Virus genome (UHGV): UHGV-0189314
Strand: one strand, 5' to 3'
Length of the DNA: 27,150 nucleotides
Source of the DNA: a virus
The notes below the pieces were generated by a model. That model saw only the letters and a program-made list of their open reading frames with translations. It was not told where the DNA came from and did no database searches. Made by a program: the position numbers and the translations under genes. Below, piece after piece: positions 6,096 to 26,666 of this stretch. The stretch's first letter is position 1. The number at the start of each line of letters is the position of its first letter.

Positions 6096-7663
6096 GCGGG
6101 GGACTGGTGGATCTTCACGGACAACCTTTGCGGCAGAGTATGGGATATTCCGGCGGCGGCTCCGGATTCGGAGGGCAACTGGCTGAATGGTTGCCAGCAC
6201 CGGAAAGTGCCGATGTGGCGCTCTTACCTTCCATTCAGTTGGGTAACGCCCGTGCGGACGATCTGGTCCGTAACAACGGTATTGCCGCAAATGCTGTGGA
6301 AATTCATAAAGACCATATCGTCGGTCACATGTTTCGCCTGAGCTACCGACCCAACTGGCGCTGGCTGGGGATGTCAGAAGCTGATTCGCATGCCTTTATT
6401 GAAGATGTGGAGGCGGCGTGGGTGGAATATTGCGATCCGGTATTTGGTTCGATGGATGTGGAAGGGCGTCGCTCGTTTACCGAATTTATTCGTGAAGGGG
6501 TGGGCGTTCATACGTTTAACGGTGAAATTTTTGTCCAGCCCGTATGGGATACGGAATCCACGTCATTATTCAGAACAAAATTCAAGACCATCAGTCCGAA
6601 GCGCGTCAGCACGCCCGGTTATGGCATCGGCGATCGTTTTATGCGTGCCGGGGTGGAAATCAACCGGTACGGAAAAGCACTGGCCTACCATGTTCAGGAA
6701 GATGACTGGCCCGGTTACGGTGTCAGCAACTGGACACGGATTGCGGCGACGCTGCCCTCCGGGCGACCGGGAATGATCCATGTGTTTCAGCCGCAGGAAG
6801 ACGGACAGACGCGCGGGGCCAACCAGTTTTATTCCGTGATGGAGCGCCTCAAGATGCTCGACACACTGCAGGCCACGCAACTGCAGTCGGCGGTGGTGCG
6901 GGCGATGTATGCCGCGACGATTGAATCCACACTGGATTCGGAAAAAGCATTTGAATATATCGCCGGGGTGGGAGATGGCGGTAAAAATCCCCTGAACACC
7001 ATCATGAAAGGCTATGCGCGCTATTACGCCACCAATACGGTAAAGATGGGTGGGGTTCGTATTCCGCATCTTTATCCGGGGGATTCACTGAATCTGCAGA
7101 CAGCACAGAATGCGGATAATGGTTTCTCTGAACTGGAAAAGGCGCTGTTACGTTACATTGCTGCCGGACTGGGCGTGTCCTATGAGCAGCTTTCCCGCGA
7201 TTATTCACAGGTCAGTTATTCCAGTGCCAGAGCATCCGCCAATGAGTCGTGGCGGTATTTTATGGGGAAACGAAAATTTGTGGCCAGCCGACTGGCGTCA
7301 CAGATGTTTGCCTGCTGGCTGGAGGAAGCCCTTATTCGCGGTGTGATCCGCCCGCCGAAATCCCGTTTTTCATTCTGGGAGGCCCGTTCCGGATGGTGTC
7401 GTGCCGAGTGGATTGGTGCCGGTCGCATGGCAATTGATGGTCTTAAGGAAGTGCAGGAAGCGGTGATGCGTATTGAAGGTGGTTTAAGCACGTACGAGAA
7501 AGAGCTGGCCCTGATGGGCGATGACTATCAGGAGATTTTCCGCCAGCAACTGCGTGAAAGCCAGGAGCGACAGGCTGCGGGTCTTCCCCGCCCCATCTGG
7601 ATAAAGGACACGTTTCAGCAGCAGATCCGACAGACAACGGGAGAAAAAGGCGATGCGTCGTAA
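6092..7663 (+). CDS. B: Portal protein (lambda gpB-like)
   Basis: GTG start overlapping the W stop (GTGA). Long colinear identity to lambda gpB (GGGSGFGGQL, GNARADDLVRNNG, FRTKFKTISPKR, HVFQPQEDGQTRGANQFYSVMERLKMLDTLQ, SYEQLSRDYSQVSYSSARASANESW). Confidence 0.95.
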   Translation: MSGGLVDLHGQPLRQSMGYSGGGSGFGGQLAEWLPAPESADVALLPSIQLGNARADDLVRNNGIAANAVEIHKDHIVGHMFRLSYRPNWRWLGMSEADSHAFIEDVEAAWVEYCDPVFGSMDVEGRRSFTEFIREGVGVHTFNGEIFVQPVWDTESTSLFRTKFKTISPKRVSTPGYGIGDRFMRAGVEINRYGKALAYHVQEDDWPGYGVSNWTRIAATLPSGRPGMIHVFQPQEDGQTRGANQFYSVMERLKMLDTLQATQLQSAVVRAMYAATIESTLDSEKAFEYIAGVGDGGKNPLNTIMKGYARYYATNTVKMGGVRIPHLYPGDSLNLQTAQNADNGFSELEKALLRYIAAGLGVSYEQLSRDYSQVSYSSARASANESWRYFMGKRKFVASRLASQMFACWLEEALIRGVIRPPKSRFSFWEARSGWCRAEWIGAGRMAIDGLKEVQEAVMRIEGGLSTYEKELALMGDDYQEIFRQQLRESQERQAAGLPRPIWIKDTFQQQIRQTTGEKGDAS

Positions 7664-9269
7664 TTTATCGCATATTGCCGCCATGGCATTTAATGAGCCG
7701 CTTTTACTGGAGCCCGCCTATGCGCGGGTTTTCTTTTGCGCGCTGGGTAAAGAGATGGGGGCCGGAAGCCTTACCGTTCCTCAGCAGGCTGTTCAGCTTG
7801 ATGCTGATGGTATGCAACTGGCTGTGACTGACTATATGGCGGGCGGTCAGCGTCCGGCAAAGAGTTACCAGGTGAAGAATGGCATTGCCATTCTGCCGGT
7901 GAGCGGCACGCTGGTGCATAAACTGGGTACCCTGCGGCCTTACTCCGGCATGACAGGCTATGACGGTCTGACGGCCCGCCTTCAGATGGCGGTGAATGAT
8001 CCGGATGTGCGCGGCATTTTGCTGGATATCGACAGCCCGGGCGGTCAGGCTGCCGGGGCGTTTGACTGTGCTGACATGATTTACCGCCTGCGGGAACAGA
8101 AGCCCGTGTGGGCGCTGTGTAATGACATGGCCTGTTCAGCCGCCATGTTGCTGGCGGCAGCCTGTACGCGTCGGCTGGTCACGCAGACGGCAAAAATTGG
8201 TTCGATTGGTGTGATGATGGCGCACACCAGTTACGAGAAACAACTGGCACAGGAAGGGGTGGACATCACGCTGATTTACTCCGGGCAGCACAAGGTTGAC
8301 GGCAACAGTATTCAGGCATTGCCGGCAGGTGTGCGTGCAGATTTTCAGCGCCGTATTGATGAGGCCCGCCGGATGTTTGTCGACAAGGTGGCACGTTATA
8401 CGGGGCTGAGCGCTGAGGCGGTGATGAATACCGAAGCAGCCGTTTATGACGGTCAGGCAGGCATTGATGCAGGCCTGGCTGATCAACTGATTAATGCTGC
8501 AGATGCCGTTGAAGTGATGGTTTCTGCACTGAATGAATCTGTAACACAGGAGGAAACGATGACAGTTAAAAATCTCACCGTTGCTGAAGCGGTGGTCCAG
8601 GAAAATCAGCGCGTGATGGGGATCCTGAATTGTCAGGAGGCGAAAGGGCGCGAGCAACTGGCGCAAATGCTGGCAGGTCAGCCTGGAATGACGGTTGAGC
8701 AGGCGAAAACGTTGCTGGCTGCTGTGCCGGTTGCCGGTACTGACAGCACGGGTGATCAGATTATGGCGCTGCCGGAAGCAAAGGGGCGTGAGCAACTGGC
8801 ACAGATGCTGGCAGGTCAACCGGGGATGACGGTGGCGCAGGCGAAAGCGTTTCTGGCGGCAGCCCCTGCTGCCGGTGCTGCAGGCACAGGCGAACAGATT
8901 ATGGCGTTACCAGAAGCAAAAGGGCGTGAACAACTCGCGCAGGCGCTGGCTGAACAGCCGGGAATGACCGTTGACCAGGCCAAAACGTTACTGGCGGCGG
9001 CACCGGTTGCGGGTTCTGCAAGTGTCGGCGAACAGATTATGGCGCTGCCGGAGGCGAAAGGGCGCGAACAACTTGCACAGGCACTGACAGAACAGCCAGG
9101 AATGACGGTGGCGCAGGCGAAAACGCTGCTGGCAGCCGCGCCGGCGGCATCGCAACCGTCACAGGAAACACTTTTTGATCGCTTTATGGCACAGCATGCT
9201 GCCAGTGCGGTTTCCGGTGGCGGAACTGCCGGGCGCGGGGAGGAAGACCTGCTGATGAGTATGCCGTAA
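7653..9269 (+). CDS. C: Head maturation protease / scaffold (lambda gpC-like, S49 family) with repeat-expanded C-terminal domain
   Basis: N-terminal ~300 aa match lambda C / ClpP-like S49 protease; the C-terminal ~230 aa consist of four 46-aa tandem repeats. Start overlaps the portal stop. Confidence 0.9.
   Translation: MRRNLSHIAAMAFNEPLLLEPAYARVFFCALGKEMGAGSLTVPQQAVQLDADGMQLAVTDYMAGGQRPAKSYQVKNGIAILPVSGTLVHKLGTLRPYSGMTGYDGLTARLQMAVNDPDVRGILLDIDSPGGQAAGAFDCADMIYRLREQKPVWALCNDMACSAAMLLAAACTRRLVTQTAKIGSIGVMMAHTSYEKQLAQEGVDITLIYSGQHKVDGNSIQALPAGVRADFQRRIDEARRMFVDKVARYTGLSAEAVMNTEAAVYDGQAGIDAGLADQLINAADAVEVMVSALNESVTQEETMTVKNLTVAEAVVQENQRVMGILNCQEAKGREQLAQMLAGQPGMTVEQAKTLLAAVPVAGTDSTGDQIMALPEAKGREQLAQMLAGQPGMTVAQAKAFLAAAPAAGAAGTGEQIMALPEAKGREQLAQALAEQPGMTVDQAKTLLAAAPVAGSASVGEQIMALPEAKGREQLAQALTEQPGMTVAQAKTLLAAAPAASQPSQETLFDRFMAQHAASAVSGGGTAGRGEEDLLMSMP
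8559..9269 (+). CDS. nu3: Putative nested in-frame scaffolding protein (lambda Nu3 analogue)
   Basis: Internal in-frame ATG at 8559 preceded by strong RBS CAGGAGGAAACG. In lambda, Nu3 is translated from an internal start in the 3' part of C. Inference by analogy. Confidence 0.45.
   Translation: MTVKNLTVAEAVVQENQRVMGILNCQEAKGREQLAQMLAGQPGMTVEQAKTLLAAVPVAGTDSTGDQIMALPEAKGREQLAQMLAGQPGMTVAQAKAFLAAAPAAGAAGTGEQIMALPEAKGREQLAQALAEQPGMTVDQAKTLLAAAPVAGSASVGEQIMALPEAKGREQLAQALTEQPGMTVAQAKTLLAAAPAASQPSQETLFDRFMAQHAASAVSGGGTAGRGEEDLLMSMP
8628..9180 (+). repeat. Four tandem copies of a 138-bp (46-codon) coding repeat inside the C/Nu3 scaffold domain
   Basis: The EAKGRE-encoding codons recur at 8637, 8775, 8913 and 9051 (period exactly 138 bp). 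Peptide units: (Q)EAKGREQLAQ[M/A]LA[G/E]QPGMTV[E/A/D]QAK[T/A][L/F]LAA[V/A]P[V/A]AG...[D/E]QIMALP; copies are diverged, not identical. Confidence 0.85.
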
Positions 9270-14713: not shown

Positions 14714-15296
14714 CGATATCAGGAGCATACTGCCGGTCAGTGCCAGCCGGGCAGAGCGGGTGGTGGACTGTGTCGCCGGAGATATGCTGTCAGATATAGC
14801 GGTCTGCCTGATCCGCTATGTGAAAAATCCCGATTTATGTCCTGCTGAATTGCTGCCATGGCTGGCCTGGGAAATGGCGGTGGACACCTGGAATGAACAC
14901 TGGACGGAGACGGAAAAAAAGTCTGCGATAAAACGTGCTGCTTACATCCACCGCCACAGAGGGACTAAAGCGGCGCTGATGGCATCGCTGGCTGACAGTC
15001 CCTTCCGGTCGCAGATTGTTGAGTGGTATGAGCAGACCCCACCCGGGGAGCCGTATACCTTTCGTTTGAACGTGGAGCAGAAGGATTTACCGGTGCTGAT
15101 GAATGATCATCAGGATCTGAAGCATGCGGTACTCCGTGCCAAAAATCTGCGTAGCTGGTTCAGTATTCACGTTTACGGGAACAGCACAGGGCGGGGATTT
15201 GGTTACGGTTATGTGATGGCGACAGAAAAAATCAGAAGTAACGGTGTGATAACAAAGACAGTGCCCACTGGCGGGCAGAGTGAGGCAGGAGTATGA
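14706..15296 (+). CDS. I: Baseplate / tail protein I (P2 gpI-like)
   Basis: NPDLCPAELLPWLAWEMAVDTWNEHW matches P2 I (NPDTCPANLLPWLAWAFSVDRWDEKW); start overlaps the J stop. Confidence 0.85.
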   Translation: MNDDIRSILPVSASRAERVVDCVAGDMLSDIAVCLIRYVKNPDLCPAELLPWLAWEMAVDTWNEHWTETEKKSAIKRAAYIHRHRGTKAALMASLADSPFRSQIVEWYEQTPPGEPYTFRLNVEQKDLPVLMNDHQDLKHAVLRAKNLRSWFSIHVYGNSTGRGFGYGYVMATEKIRSNGVITKTVPTGGQSEAGV

Positions 15297-16552
15297 ATGG
15301 ACTGATTCTGACAACGTCCGGCACTGCAGAAATTGAAGCAGCATATCAGAACGGGCAAACCGTGACCGTCCGGCATGTTCTGCTTGGTGACGGGGGCGGG
15401 CAGGCATTGCCATCCACGCCGGATGAAATGGCAGCAATGACATCATTGTACGGCGAATTTGGGCAGGAACCCTTTTCCGACGGTGCGGTGGAGGAGGGCT
15501 TCATCAGCGGGGATATTGTGATTGACTGTAAATCATACCCCGGTAAAACCCTTCGTGAACTGGGTATAATTAGCGACAGCGGTACGCTTATCGCGTACGG
15601 ACGTTATCCGGACACCTTTTTACCAGACCAGACGGACTCTGTTATCAAGGAAGTTATTCTGACGCTGGTTCTTGGGCTGACGCACGCACAAAACGTGGTG
15701 CTGGAAGTTGATCCGGACAGGGCCATTATTACTCAGGAAATCGGAGACAGACGCTATCTGCAACGAAAAAAGAATCTTTCGGATGTGGAAGACAAGGATG
15801 AGGCTGTTAAAAACCTCGGATTAAAATCCACGGTGGACAAGGCAAAAAATGCCGTTCAGCGTGATGGTGACACCATGACCGGGGATCTGAAAATCCGTGG
15901 TGTTAATGCGCTGAGGATTTTCAACGAAGCCTTTGGTCTGATTTTTCGTCGTTCGGAAGAGTGCCTGCACCTTATCCCTACCAGTGAAGGTCAGGGCGAG
16001 AATGGCGATATTGGTCCACTTCGCCCGTTCACTATTAATCTGCGGACGGGTGAAATATCCATGTCGCATAAAGTGTCTATTGGCGGTGGTTCGCAGGTCA
16101 ATGGTGCGCTGGGTATCGGCGTTCAGAATGCCTTGGGCGGTAACTCAATTGCTTTCGGGGATAACGATACTGGCCTGAAACAGAATGGTGATGGCCTGCT
16201 GGATGTTTATGCCAATAGCGTGCATGTGTTGCGTTTTCAGAGTGGCAGTATCCAGAGTAATAAAGCTGTAAACGTTACAGGACGGGTAACACCGTCAGAC
16301 TACGGAAACTTTGATGCCCGTTACCAGACCAAAACAGGCGGCGTGCAGGATGTGCGTTATGGTTCCGAAATGTATTACACCCCGGGAGGTAACCAGATAT
16401 CCTGGACATTTCGCTCACCTTCAGGCCACGGGTTATCCGGTATTAATGTGCAGGAAACCGGAAGTAATTCGGCGGATAACATCGGCGGTGTGTATTACCG
16501 ACCGCTTCAGAAACTGATTAACGGTACCTGGTATAACGTGGCGAGTGTTTAA
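15293..16552 (+). CDS. H: Tail fibre protein (P2 gpH-like)
   Basis: C-terminal ALGGNSIAFGDNDTGLKQNGDGLLDVYANS ... GNFDARY ... YRPLQKLINGTWYNVASV matches P2 H (ALGGSSIVLGDNDTGFKQNGDGILDVYANS ... FDSRY ... FRPIQKYINGTWYNVAQV). Confidence 0.9.
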   Translation: MNGLILTTSGTAEIEAAYQNGQTVTVRHVLLGDGGGQALPSTPDEMAAMTSLYGEFGQEPFSDGAVEEGFISGDIVIDCKSYPGKTLRELGIISDSGTLIAYGRYPDTFLPDQTDSVIKEVILTLVLGLTHAQNVVLEVDPDRAIITQEIGDRRYLQRKKNLSDVEDKDEAVKNLGLKSTVDKAKNAVQRDGDTMTGDLKIRGVNALRIFNEAFGLIFRRSEECLHLIPTSEGQGENGDIGPLRPFTINLRTGEISMSHKVSIGGGSQVNGALGIGVQNALGGNSIAFGDNDTGLKQNGDGLLDVYANSVHVLRFQSGSIQSNKAVNVTGRVTPSDYGNFDARYQTKTGGVQDVRYGSEMYYTPGGNQISWTFRSPSGHGLSGINVQETGSNSADNIGGVYYRPLQKLINGTWYNVASV

Positions 16553-16554
16553 CA

Positions 16555-17097
16555 ATGTTGCATTTAAAAAATATTACTGCGGGTAACCCGAAAACCGCAG
16601 AACAATATCAGCTGACAAAACAGTATGATGTCACCTGGCTTTTTTCGGAAGACGGCAAAAACTGGTATGAAGAACAGGAGAATTTTGCCAGTGACACCAT
16701 AAAAATGGTTTATACCGGAGACGGAAGCGTGGTGTGGGTCGGTAAGGATGTGACAGGCATTGAACCCCGTAACGCCAGTGTTATTGAAGTTCCTGATATT
16801 ATCGCCAATCGCCGCATTACCGCACCGGGTTACTGGTTTTACCGCAATGATGAATTTGTTTTCGACTACAAACTTAAAGCGGAAGACGAGCGTGATGCCC
16901 TGTTAAAACAGGTCAGCATCATCACCAGTGAGTGGGAAAAAGACCTGCTGCTGGGATTAATCAGCGACGAAGACAGGGAGAAGCTGAAAGCGTACCGCAT
17001 TTATGCGAAATCGCTGCAGGCGATGGGTTTCAGCGCTATTGCGGATAAGACTGCTTACGACAAAATTGCCTGGCCTGAGTCACCACAAAATATCTGA
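16555..17097 (+). CDS. G: Tail fibre assembly chaperone (P2 gpG / Tfa-like)
   Basis: 180-aa ORF immediately after the fibre gene, in the canonical tfa position and size; call rests on position and general resemblance. Confidence 0.75.
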   Translation: MLHLKNITAGNPKTAEQYQLTKQYDVTWLFSEDGKNWYEEQENFASDTIKMVYTGDGSVVWVGKDVTGIEPRNASVIEVPDIIANRRITAPGYWFYRNDEFVFDYKLKAEDERDALLKQVSIITSEWEKDLLLGLISDEDREKLKAYRIYAKSLQAMGFSAIADKTAYDKIAWPESPQNI

Positions 17098-23061: not shown

Positions 23062-24279
23062 ATGTCTGTATTAATTTCGGGTGTGCTGACGGATGGTGCG
23101 GGACTCCCCATGTCCGGATACCATATTATTCTGAAAGCCCGACAGAATACATCCGCAGTGGTTATGAGAACGGTGGCAACAGTGGTGACAGGGCCGGCAG
23201 GAGAATATGCATTTGAGGCTCAAACCGGAATATATGATGTTTATCTTCGTTCGTGTATTGAAAGAGAATATTGTGTCGGTGATATTTGGGTTTACGACGA
23301 TTCTAGGCCCGGTACACTGAATGATTTTCTGACCGCTCTCGATGAGGGCGACTTGAAACCGGATGTGGTGAAACGCTTCGAAGAAATGTTGGCGCAGGCG
23401 CAGCAGAGCGCGGAAGCGGCAGCGGAAAGCGAACGACAGTCCGGGCAACACGCAGCTGATGCGCAGAAGATTAAGGATGATTGCCAGATGCTGGCGGATA
23501 ACGTACAGCAGAATGCAGAAGCCGTTGCCGAAGATAAACAACGCGTTGAACATCTGGCCTCAGAAGTTGAGTTGAACGCTGGGCAGGTGCAGCAGAGTAT
23601 TACAGATGCAGTAAAGCAGGCTCAACAGGTAGCAGATGACGCTGCATCCAGTGCCGAGGAATCAAAGAACAATGCGCAGGAAGCAAAACAGTACAGGGAT
23701 GAGGCACAACAGATTATTGATAGTCTGAATGCAACAAATGCCACCACAATGGATAAAGGGCTGGTGCAACTGTGTAGTGATACGGACAACGACACCGAGG
23801 AGCTGGCTGCTACGCCAAAGGCAGTCAAAGCCGTCATGGATGAGGTTAAGGGAAAAGCGCCGCTGGACAGCCCTGCGTTCACTGGCATGCCAACCACCCC
23901 CACCCCTTCGCAGGATGCGTCCGGTTGTGAAATTGTAAATGCTGAATTTGTTCGGGCATTGATTGCTGCAACGTCATCAGGTTCGTATTCAACCGATTCA
24001 GTGGTTCCGCTGGTAATTAATGGTGCACAACTCCAGTCCGCTCATCAGAGCAGTGGACCACTGGTGATAAACAAGGTGCAATTTCAGCACGTCCGTCAGA
24101 CCAGAACCAATGCCCCCCTGGTGGTCAACAAAGCACTGATCCAGTCCGCTCATCAGAGCAGTGGACCACTGGTGATTAACAAGGCGCAACTTCAGCACGG
24201 TCGTCAGGCCAGAACCAACGGCCCCCTGGTGGTTAACCGTATGGGGTTGAGTTTTGCATTCGTTACCCCTTTGCAATGA
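23062..24279 (+). CDS. Second tail fibre: lambda-Stf-like N-terminus, coiled-coil region, repeat-containing C-terminus
   Basis: N-terminus MSVLISGVLTDGAGLPMSGYHIILKARQNTSAVV...VYDDSRPGTLNDFL matches the lambda Stf / prophage tail-fibre N-terminal domain (MAVKISGVLKDGTGKPVQNCTIQLKA...VYEDSQPGTLNDFL). Middle GLVQLCSDTDNDTEELAATPKAVKAVMDEVKGKAPLDSPAFTGMPTTPT matches the conserved fibre motif also in P2 H. Confidence 0.8.
   Translation: MSVLISGVLTDGAGLPMSGYHIILKARQNTSAVVMRTVATVVTGPAGEYAFEAQTGIYDVYLRSCIEREYCVGDIWVYDDSRPGTLNDFLTALDEGDLKPDVVKRFEEMLAQAQQSAEAAAESERQSGQHAADAQKIKDDCQMLADNVQQNAEAVAEDKQRVEHLASEVELNAGQVQQSITDAVKQAQQVADDAASSAEESKNNAQEAKQYRDEAQQIIDSLNATNATTMDKGLVQLCSDTDNDTEELAATPKAVKAVMDEVKGKAPLDSPAFTGMPTTPTPSQDASGCEIVNAEFVRALIAATSSGSYSTDSVVPLVINGAQLQSAHQSSGPLVINKVQFQHVRQTRTNAPLVVNKALIQSAHQSSGPLVINKAQLQHGRQARTNGPLVVNRMGLSFAFVTPLQ
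24007..24240 (+). repeat. Near-identical tandem coding repeat (2 x 108 bp plus a partial third) at the C-terminus of the Stf-like fibre
   Basis: Copies at 24007-24114 and 24115-24222 differ at only a few positions; each encodes PLV[I/V]N-x-(A/V)Q-x-Q-SAHQSSG / PLVIN-K-x-Q-x-QH-x-RQ-x-RTN. Also generates the antisense artefact ORF 23998-24276. Confidence 0.75.
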
Positions 24280-24309
24280 AAACTAACTTTATGAAATGAG
24301 GGTTAAATT

Positions 24310-25473
24310 TTGAATATCATCGATATGGAAGGTTTCTGTCAGATCCCGGCAAACCGTGAGCTTACCAGTTCTTACTCAGCATCAACAATCATGTCGTTGC
24401 TGAAAGAGTACGGTGTCACACTCATCACTGAAACAACCATAGGCACCACACCTTCTTCAGTCCAGCGTAGCACGCAGACCGTTTATGGTATCGACAGGTC
24501 GGGGTTGGTTTTAAGTGCAACAGGAGGACGTATTGCATTTAAAGTTCCGCTTCCTGACATAAGTGAGTCTGCCGTGCAAATGGGATTTCGTCTTACTCTG
24601 GGTGAGGGAACAAAATATTCTTCAGGTCTTTCCGTCATTTCGGTGGGAGGGTGTACGTTTTTGACGCCTTATCCGGCAGAAGCCGCCAGTTATTACTACG
24701 AAATTTTTGTTACTTGGGATGGCGTTAAATGCACAGCGGACTTGTATTGCAGTGGAGCCTTGTCGCAAACAGGCACGTTCTCCCCCGCAAGAACAGACAG
24801 CGTATCAGTCACCATTGGGGTAACCAGTGGTTATATTTTTTCCTCAGGCGTTACAGGTACGCTGATGCTGGGAGATATGTACTGCGCAACGGTGGCATAT
24901 AACGACGAAAACATCGCAGAAGCCTCTCCACTGGGTAGTATTGAGGTGAGATACAGTGAGGTTACTCAGTTTGAGGGAGGTCGTGCAGAAAACTCACTGG
25001 GGGAAGATATTGTTACAGGACTGAACACACCGACTAGTGATGCTGGTTACCTGCTGCTGGGGGCGTCCACGGATGCGGCAGTGGCAACGTTTGCTGATAT
25101 TGATAATAGAGGTGGAGAGTTGATTGGCATTAAAACAGCTGTCACATACAGGAGTTCAGCCACGCCAAACAACTATCTGGCGTGGAATACGGGCTGTGAA
25201 AGTGGCAGCGGGGCAATAACAGAAGAGACGGAACTAAACGCTGACCAGTCCAGCTGGACTACGGTTAAACAATGCTTTATGAATCTGCCCGGTAGTGAAG
25301 ATGCTTTCGGTGAGGGGAATCTGACGTTCACGGCCTCCCTGTATAACAGAAAAATATCTGAGGACAATCCTGTATCCCGACACTATCGCGTGATGAGAGA
25401 GGTGCTGAATGTCTCCGGTGTTGAGGAGAAGGATATAGAGGTTGAGGACAATAGTGCAGGTCGATCGCAATGA
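24310..25473 (+). CDS. Hypothetical protein (387 aa), Ser/Thr/Gly-rich, beta-rich; no family recognised
   Basis: Probable TTG start at 24310 (RBS GAGGG 8 nt upstream) or ATG at 24325; 30 nt after the Stf-like gene. No signal peptide or recognisable motif. Candidate distal fibre / receptor-binding component or accessory cargo. Confidence 0.5.
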   Translation: MNIIDMEGFCQIPANRELTSSYSASTIMSLLKEYGVTLITETTIGTTPSSVQRSTQTVYGIDRSGLVLSATGGRIAFKVPLPDISESAVQMGFRLTLGEGTKYSSGLSVISVGGCTFLTPYPAEAASYYYEIFVTWDGVKCTADLYCSGALSQTGTFSPARTDSVSVTIGVTSGYIFSSGVTGTLMLGDMYCATVAYNDENIAEASPLGSIEVRYSEVTQFEGGRAENSLGEDIVTGLNTPTSDAGYLLLGASTDAAVATFADIDNRGGELIGIKTAVTYRSSATPNNYLAWNTGCESGSGAITEETELNADQSSWTTVKQCFMNLPGSEDAFGEGNLTFTASLYNRKISEDNPVSRHYRVMREVLNVSGVEEKDIEVEDNSAGRSQ

Positions 25474-25886
25474 GGATATTTATCGTCGCCAGCGGGACAG
25501 CGGGGGATGAAGCAAGAGCTTAATGACCTGGAGGATTTACGCTCAATCAGAGAGATGACGATTAGTAATTAGCAGTCAATTCTGGGCTTTTGGGTTGCAC
25601 GCTTTTCGCCCAGAATTGTGCGTCAATTATCCCAGAAAAAATTAATAAGTTACAATCAGGCAAAAAATTTCCTCTGCAAAACCAAAAAGATTTTAATATA
25701 ATCAATCGGTTAAAGGCGAAGGCGGCGCAGGCAAATGGTGCAAACAATCATCTAAAAATCTTGTTTTTTGCTTTAAATACAGTTTGTTATTATGTTTTTT
25801 GAGACTCTACCAGAGTGACAACATACGCCCGCTACGGTTTTGCGGGCGTAAGATAATTAAGAATTTTATATGTATTATAATTAACT

Positions 25887-26666
25887 TTATATAAGAGTGT
25901 TTTGCAGCCAGTTTTTTATCGTTATATTGACTTCCTTTGCGTGAGTAATATTTAGAGCATGATTAGCGTCGGGAATGACTTCAAGCTTAGAATGTGCAAT
26001 CATTTTGTGCATTTGAATTGCTTTCTCCAAAGATATCCCCGTATCTCTGGCACCATGAATAATCAGGGTGGGGGTTGTGATTATCTGGATTCTTTCTGAA
26101 ATGTCGTCGCGCTCCAGCATTGCATTCATGGCATTTCTGATGTTTTCAGGCTTATGGCCTAGCCATACTTGTCTCCATGTCTCTGCTTCAGAAATATTAT
26201 TTCCGAAAAAAACGGGTAATAATGAGGAAATTATATTTTCCTTTATGATTGGGTCTTGCCATCCATCACATAACTCCATGTAACTGGAAGCGATTTCTGG
26301 CGGATCCTGCTCTGCCTGAGTTGCCATAAGGATTAACCCTGATAAACGTTCCGAATGTGAAAGAGCAAATCGTAAAGATATATATCCGCCCATTGACATC
26401 CCCCCTAAAACAAACTTATCTAGTTGTAGTAAGTCTGCAACCATTAAAATATCATCGACGATATCATAGAGCGAGAATGCTTCTGTTTTTTCACTGTTTT
26501 TATCAAACCCCCGAACATTAATACAAACAACTCTGTGTTTTTCTTTTAGTTCGTCAAGCTGATATTTAAACATTTCATTATTCATGAAAAATCCATGAAC
26601 GAATATTACAGGGGGATTGTTTTTATTTGTTTCAGTGTATCCAGAATCAGTAAACGTAAAATTCAT
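25887..26666 (-). CDS. Alpha/beta-hydrolase-fold protein (esterase/lipase-type serine hydrolase), low-GC cargo gene
   Basis: HGFF oxyanion-hole motif, nucleophile elbow GGMSMGG (G-x-S-x-G), acidic residue in HGARDTG, and His in DANHALN in the canonical order Ser-Asp-His. RBS GGAGGG upstream of the minus-strand ATG. Strongly AT-rich codon usage unlike the phage structural genes. Confidence 0.8.
   Translation of the reverse strand: MNFTFTDSGYTETNKNNPPVIFVHGFFMNNEMFKYQLDELKEKHRVVCINVRGFDKNSEKTEAFSLYDIVDDILMVADLLQLDKFVLGGMSMGGYISLRFALSHSERLSGLILMATQAEQDPPEIASSYMELCDGWQDPIIKENIISSLLPVFFGNNISEAETWRQVWLGHKPENIRNAMNAMLERDDISERIQIITTPTLIIHGARDTGISLEKAIQMHKMIAHSKLEVIPDANHALNITHAKEVNITIKNWLQNTLI

Follow-up and report, generated by a model that had tools for sequence, protein, structure and literature searches.

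The second ('side') tail-fibre gene of the virus genome UHGV-0189314 ends in a tandem array of five short repeat units of the 'PLxIN..QLQ' type. As judged from its sequence and those of its relatives, this array is an undescribed, portable C-terminal repeat module that occurs on four kinds of anchor. The stretch of DNA analysed, referred to below as the window, is 27,150 nucleotides (nt) long and represents a phiP27-like E. coli prophage with a lambda-type head (gpA terminase, lambda portal, S49 protease, capsid E) and a P2-type contractile tail. Alignment with related prophages indicates that the module and the open reading frame (ORF) downstream of it are a swapped-in two-gene cassette. The module probably acts as a docking shaft for the product of that ORF, which would be a separately encoded receptor-binding partner.

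The repeat module and its cassette

The features of the region are listed here; each lies on the + strand.

23062-24279, +, second ('side') tail-fibre gene, 405 amino acids (aa), with N-terminal anchor, coiled-coil-like stretch, fibre-repeat motif and five-unit C-terminal module
24007-24057, +, repeat unit A1, PLVINGAQLQSAHQSSG, 17 aa
24058-24114, +, repeat unit B1, PLVINKVQFQHVRQTRTNA, 19 aa
24115-24165, +, repeat unit A2, PLVVNKALIQSAHQSSG, 17 aa, 78% nt identity with A1
24166-24222, +, repeat unit B2, PLVINKAQLQHGRQARTNG, 19 aa, 86% nt identity with B1
24223-24276, +, terminal unit T, PLVVNRMGLSFAFVTPLQ, hydrophobic 'GLxFA' cap, 91% nt identity with the Raoultella orthologue
24277-24279, +, stop codon of the fibre ORF
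24298-24302, +, GAGGG Shine-Dalgarno-like motif, 7 nt 5' of the partner TTG, read from the sequence
24310-25473, +, partner gene, 387 aa, TTG start, phrog_8291 (function unknown)
23928-25455, +, swapped-in cassette in place of the distal fibre and the greater part of the DUF4376 gene (blastn against loci L003 and L004)
25456-25572, +, surviving 3' end of a DUF4376 gene, right-hand scar of the swap (PGAP annotation of an identical locus, blastn)

Tandem Repeats Finder reports a period of 108 at 24032-24237, with 1.9 copies, 90% matches and zero indels. Weaker sub-periods of 51 and 57 nt cover the same stretch, which shows the 108-nt unit to be a double unit of 17 + 19 codons. The in-frame copies are 24007-24114 and 24115-24222, where 24007 begins the first proline codon of unit A1. 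These copies differ at 19 of 108 positions (82.4% identity), while a 98-nt core (24032-24129 versus 24140-24237) has 9 differences (90.8% identity). The paralogous core match in a near-identical locus, L001, has a BLAST E value of 5e-34, far beyond chance. A preliminary description of the window had reported a near-identical duplication with only a handful of differences; the tandem duplication and its exact coordinates hold, but the near-identity was overstated. Likewise, the partial third copy it listed does match the repeat at 14 of 15 bases (24223-24237), but is the start of a diverged fifth unit of 18 codons (24223-24276). Its remark that these copies are more similar than the other repeats of the window is correct: the only other large tandem repeat, at 8636-9144 (period 138 bp, 3.7 copies), has 78% matches.

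The last 90 residues of the fibre are thus five units in the order A-B-A-B-T, each 108-nt copy supplying one A and one B. The module is recognised by at least three tandem 17-20-residue units carrying P1, L/V2, I/V4, N5, L9 and Q10 at the extreme C-terminus, and all five units (24007-24276) are of this kind. The terminal unit, PLVVNRMGLSFAFVTPLQ, carries the 'G-L-x-F-A-V/F' motif of terminal units.

The placement of the repeat in the C-terminus of a fibre is borne out by the remainder of the ORF. Residues 1-134 match PF08400 (E 1.3e-53, Pfam), as in side fibres of the lambda Stf type, and residues 1-93 match PDB 9e7m, 'tail fiber protein' (E 1.5e-16). A PF03406 fibre repeat lies in the shaft at residues 228-267 (E 1.9e-12, Pfam). 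With the lambda Stf and phiP27 L56-type side fibres the protein shares the N-terminal anchor, the coiled region and the 'SPAFTG...NAEFVRALIA' motif, and its gene likewise comes after late-control gene D in a prophage that is phiP27-like and has a tail of the P2 type. It departs from them at residue ~289, where the distal fibre and the DUF4376 partner give way to the module and the 387-aa protein. The fibre lacks the long receptor-binding distal part of such proteins, neither a Tfa gene nor a full DUF4376 gene follows it, and homology to fibres stops at 23927.

The boundaries of the exchange are visible in comparison with the related prophage loci L003 and L004, in which a fibre of ~757 aa is followed by a DUF4376 protein. 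Homology by blastn ends at 23925-23927 and restarts at 25456-25498, and the module and partner (1.53 kb) stand in for the distal fibre and DUF4376 gene of the relatives (1.58 kb). The last few codons of the partner ORF extend into the DUF4376 remnant.

The module family and its partner

The internal units of the family follow the consensus P-L-x-I-N-R-x-Q-L-Q-S/T-G/A-H/R/Y-x-T/S-x-E. Among 55 distinct internal units, the expected residue is present 52 times at P1, 39 at L2, 51 at I/V4, 48 at N5, 35 at Q8, 37 at L9 and 45 at Q10. The terminal unit has its own consensus, P-L-x-I/V-N-R/H-x-G-L-x-F-A-V, with Ala12 in all 11 distinct examples and Phe11 in 9. When 1.84 billion cluster representatives were searched exhaustively with HMMER, only 7 real module clusters emerged, and in these the module always occupies the extreme C-terminus. 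A word-index protein search is insensitive for this repeat, returning 2 near-identical proteins with the C-terminus alone and 5 with an alignment of the module, and the family was found through the exhaustive HMMER search and genomic context. The contigs of species-representative genomes contributed one locus.

The association with the partner is strict. In six of the seven clusters the partner gene lies downstream, mostly as the next gene. Conversely, of the viral, genomic and metagenomic loci that have a partner homologue and whose upstream DNA could be read, all 44 encode a protein that ends in the module. The gene for this protein is 1-45 nt upstream of the partner in 41 loci, and in the other 3 the module is on a Gp48 gene 1.4-1.5 kb upstream. 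The window conforms, with a phrog_8291-type partner (24310-25473) within 1.5 kb downstream, and control loci without the partner (L002-L005) lack the module. The anchors are diverse, and the number of units across the family ranges from 3 to 7:

L008, 202-aa protein, anchor PF08400, 3 units
L006, uncalled 314-aa Raoultella gene, anchor PF08400, 5 units, A-B-A-B-T as in the window
L011, anchor PF12571 (P2 H-like), 5 units
L010, L016-L019 and L027, anchor PF10076 (Mu Gp48 baseplate wedge), 4-7 units
L040, 133-aa protein adjoining gp37/Gp38-like genes, no known anchor domain, 4 units

Pfam, NCBIfam and PHROGs (the last searched with the module alone) contain nothing that matches the module, and a profile of it run against all PDB chain sequences gave 0 matches at E <= 10. 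The module, the partner and the L040 pair also have no match (tblastn/blastn) in the 50,697 phage genomes of the 2025 INPHARED collection. A description of the module was not found in literature searches on PF08400, on copy number of tail-fibre tandem repeats or on phage triple beta-spirals.

Several members of the family show further features. In L040 (1-6463 of a 19-kb contig from a public sequencing run), the genes for the 133-aa module protein and a 348-aa partner, 50% identical to that of the window, are preceded by one for a gp37-like fibre that has a Peptidase_S74 domain, by two genes for Gp38-like adhesins and by a DUF7941 gene. This context indicates that the cassette also occurs outside temperate tails of the P2/Mu type. 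A terminal-like unit (GLHFAV or GMHFAV, then P.L.GK) is found as unit 2 of 7 in the Mu Gp48-type proteins (L010 3003-3977; L019; L027 1084-2076), whose array looks as if a 2-unit and a 5-unit module had been joined in tandem. A deleted prophage remnant (L014 2769-3455, P0001) has a DNA-binding N-terminus fused in frame to the fibre at 'KGKAPLDSPAFTG', with module and partner kept; this N-terminus, assigned by eye, may be terminase-small-subunit-like. Cassettes of the window type and of the Gp48 type (L019) are found together, in different prophages, in each of three complete E. coli genomes (NZ_CP157132.1, NZ_CP157093.1 and NZ_AP045064.1).

Homologues of the partner form 26 clusters, from E. 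coli, E. albertii and Raoultella, with lengths of 350-390 aa (348 aa in L040) and a conserved N-terminus, MNII.LEGF. Its TTG start behind a GAGG-type ribosome-binding site is shared by several diverged relatives (window 24310; L006 4001; L011 3486). The partner has no match in Pfam or NCBIfam and no meaningful match in a PDB profile search. Homology to Gp38 (PF05268 / PF21721) was not detected in Pfam, NCBIfam or PDB sequences, nor does the partner match a chaperone domain (Caudo_TAP PF02413 or DUF4376). Its AlphaFold2 model (24 homologues; pLDDT 77, pTM 0.68) contains two beta-sandwich domains. The predicted fold is of a two-domain concanavalin-A-like lectin type, with a jelly roll superposable on lectins, carbohydrate-binding modules (CBMs) or PL7 lyases. 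Full-length Foldseek matches among predicted viral structures (BFVD) are uncharacterised phage proteins of 320-370 aa, and the top one, from an Achromobacter phage, bears the label 'virion structural protein' (E 3e-12, TM 0.57-0.61).

Proposed function of the module and its partner

Since the module and partner replace a distal fibre together with its partner gene, and sit on unrelated anchors, a stalk with a docking function is the simplest reading. The 108-bp duplication has doubled an A-B pair in frame to A-B-A-B, and the array to which it belongs is built of repeats of 17-19 residues of the beta-strand type. These repeats would form a short stalk on a virion anchor, which could be a Stf-like or P2 H-like fibre N-terminus, Mu Gp48 or a small adaptor protein, and the hydrophobic terminal unit would dock the lectin-fold partner. 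The partner, and not the repeats, would then be the receptor-binding subunit, probably a glycan-binding one. Changes in unit number (3-7) would arise by unequal recombination or slippage, with units homogenised within a genome, and would tune reach or valency while the reading frame is kept. A more specific proposal can be offered only tentatively. The PLxIN array may be a portable 'socket' that plugs lectin-fold receptor-binding proteins onto any anchor, Gp48 included, with one partner per 'GLxFAV' unit and with the QLQ units as an adjustable spacer that evolves by unit gain, loss and gene conversion. The second terminal-like unit of the Gp48-type proteins hints at two docking sites.

Four points weigh against docking. 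Synteny and co-inheritance would also be expected from plain linkage in a mobile cassette, and physical docking is inferred. The AlphaFold2 monomer of the module (7-row alignment) has a pLDDT of 42.6 and is unusable. Gp48-type wedge proteins are thought to be present in one copy per wedge and fibres are trimers, so that one common quaternary structure for the module is not obvious. Finally, neither gene occurs in any deposited phage genome of the INPHARED set, so that the presence of the two proteins in virions is presumed.

A first comparison is with other baseplate wedges. Mu Gp48 presumably corresponds to the gp7/TssG class. Wedge proteins of that class are single-copy and hold peripheral trimers, and the module therefore need not be a homotrimer. 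The wedge has the stoichiometry TssE-(TssF)2-TssG with a trimeric TssK, and its single-copy protein links to peripheral binding proteins (PMC5813253). In many loci the module extends the C-terminus of the Mu Gp48 wedge protein, and in this it is similar to TssG-TssK and T4 gp7-gp10. However, there is no sequence relation, and the same module also ends fibres that are presumably trimeric.

A second comparison is with T2/S16-type gp37-gp38, where a separate adhesin encoded beside the fibre gene caps the fibre tip. The window likewise encodes a fibre with a short attachment region and then a separate distal protein, and in L040 gp37-like and Gp38-like genes immediately precede the pair. However, the window partner has no Gp38 signal, its fold is predicted to be of lectin type whereas that of gp38 is a polyglycine sandwich, and the attachment region is a repeat of variable number. 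The units also share features with the triple beta-spiral of adenovirus/reovirus fibre shafts (15-20-aa units, a conserved Pro/Gly at the boundary, alternating hydrophobics, a variable loop, motifs such as 'GPLxV....L.L'); this likeness is no more than a lead. Membership in that class is not supported by the module profile, which found no PDB chain at the E value given above. Were the stalk an adenovirus-like triple beta-spiral, this would be one more unexpected feature in a tailed phage.

The alternative that survives best, although it is unlikely, assigns the roles differently: the 387-aa partner would be an assembly chaperone or other non-structural factor, and the repeats with their terminal unit would be the receptor-contacting end of the fibre, in parallel with Tfa/DUF4376 systems. 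Position is compatible with this, as the partner sits where relatives have a DUF4376 or Tfa gene, but known fibre chaperones are half its size, and it lacks any PF02413 or DUF4376 signal. The lack of a confident fold for the module alone also speaks for this reading. Against it, the partner model is a two-domain lectin-type jelly roll, and the protein that matches it best in structure over the full length bears the label of a virion structural protein. Strict co-occurrence would suit a dedicated chaperone equally well. However, an array of simple repeats only 90 residues long is unlikely as the sole receptor-binding domain, and Gp48-type loci also hold a normal fibre with its own Tfa.

It is less probable still that the array is itself a multivalent adhesin, a beta-hairpin solenoid like cell-wall or choline-binding repeats, and that the partner is linked cargo. 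Units of 17-19 aa with a beta-strand pattern would be compatible with solenoid-type binding repeats, as would a copy number of 3-7. However, the positions that are conserved are putatively structural (Pro1, Leu2, Ile4, Asn5, Leu9, Gln10) while the loops vary, and the PDB profile search found no likeness to any solved repeat protein. Co-occurrence with one protein family in all 44 loci, across unrelated anchors, is also hard to explain by linkage alone.

Modular tips of tail fibres determine the range of hosts open to temperate E. coli phages and to particles derived from phages. The module with its obligate lectin-fold partner is a variation on this familiar theme that annotation has misread: a compact cassette of repeat stalk and lectin-like protein, grafted onto at least four anchors and unseen by current annotation. 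If the partner does dock on the module, the module would offer a natural adaptor of tunable size with which phages or tailocins could be re-targeted, and would account for a class of enterobacterial fibre genes that seem 'truncated'.

Integrity of the gene and variation in unit number

Gene callers have treated the module poorly. PGAP annotates an identical gene as a pseudogene 'missing C-terminus' (NZ_AP019856.1, EcoO8H8_RS22715; L001 6001-6924), since beyond about residue 288-308 it no longer resembles ordinary fibres, and the Raoultella orthologue (L006 3039-3983) has no gene call at all. The PGAP view would make the C-terminus a non-functional read-through that followed a fibre-truncating recombination, with the tandem repeat incidental. 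The end of fibre homology at about residue 288 could be read in this way, and the DUF4376 remnant shows that a rearrangement took place. However, versions of the module with 31-63% protein identity are found in E. coli, E. albertii, Raoultella and metagenomes, and in each case the module is in frame and ends the protein. Of the six reading frames, only the + frame is open in all 9 diverged modules. Comparison of copy 1 with copy 2 in the window gives a dN/dS of 0.143/0.415 = 0.35, and comparison of the window with the Raoultella orthologue gives 0.267/0.949 = 0.28. By these ratios of ~0.3 the module is under purifying selection, and the pattern indicates that the window fibre gene and its Raoultella orthologue are both intact. 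Read-through from a pseudogene is contradicted by these comparisons and is very improbable.

Two other coding possibilities were rejected. An antisense ORF at 23998-24276 (- strand) has its frame broken in 6 of 9 relatives. A read-through or frameshift fusion of fibre and partner is opposed by three in-frame stops in the window and by a different relative frame in L008.

The preliminary description also cautioned that assembly collapse might have altered the copy number. This does not apply here. The gene is present in six complete E. coli genomes from different hosts at 99.1-99.9% identity, with the same length and five units, and five units are also found in four IMG/VR contigs, one metagenome contig and the cluster representative P0029 (98% identical). 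The same five units in independent genomes and contigs give no indication of collapse, and the 19 positions that differ between the copies allow reads to be placed unambiguously. No point in favour of an assembly artefact, collapsed or expanded, was found, and this explanation, also contradicted by the sequence comparisons, can be set aside.

Nor is the duplication very recent, although a recent event had been suggested: dS between the two copies in the window is 0.41, and the Raoultella orthologue has the same A-B-A-B-T layout. From these comparisons the window array appears old; it is fixed at five units and stable in its lineage. Identity between the two A-B pairs within a genome (82% in the window, 88% in Raoultella) is higher than that between orthologous pairs of the window and Raoultella (63-67%; T unit 91%, whole gene ~76%). 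This implies either that internal units have been homogenised, by gene conversion or unequal crossing-over, or that they were duplicated independently in each lineage.

Change in copy number by slippage or recombination, also proposed in that description, is seen in the family but not in the window allele, for which all examples have five units. One case, in a sister lineage, is the pair L016 and L017, whose flanks are 98-99.8% identical and which differ cleanly by one 51-nt unit. L018 has an unchanged number of units with a different unit composition, and L010 has 7 units against 6 in L028. The L016 type is present in 3 complete E. coli genomes only. The L019 type has the same length among the full-length matches listed (~25 of 55 complete E. 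coli genomes with at least 80% coverage). Phase-variable slipped-strand contingency is not indicated, the units being 51, 57 or 60 nt and every observed variant being in frame.

The window phage also encodes a primary fibre (15293-16552) and Tfa (16555-17097), and the prophage adjoins prfC. An alpha/beta-hydrolase gene (25887-26666, - strand) separates the fibre cassette from the end of the prophage near prfC and is followed in L001 by ferredoxin and DinI-like genes; this region is possibly cargo (moron) DNA. The 138-bp repeat at 8636-9144 is inside the ORF 7653-9269, C-terminal to the Peptidase_S49 head-protease domain, and is probably a repetitive scaffold-like tail.

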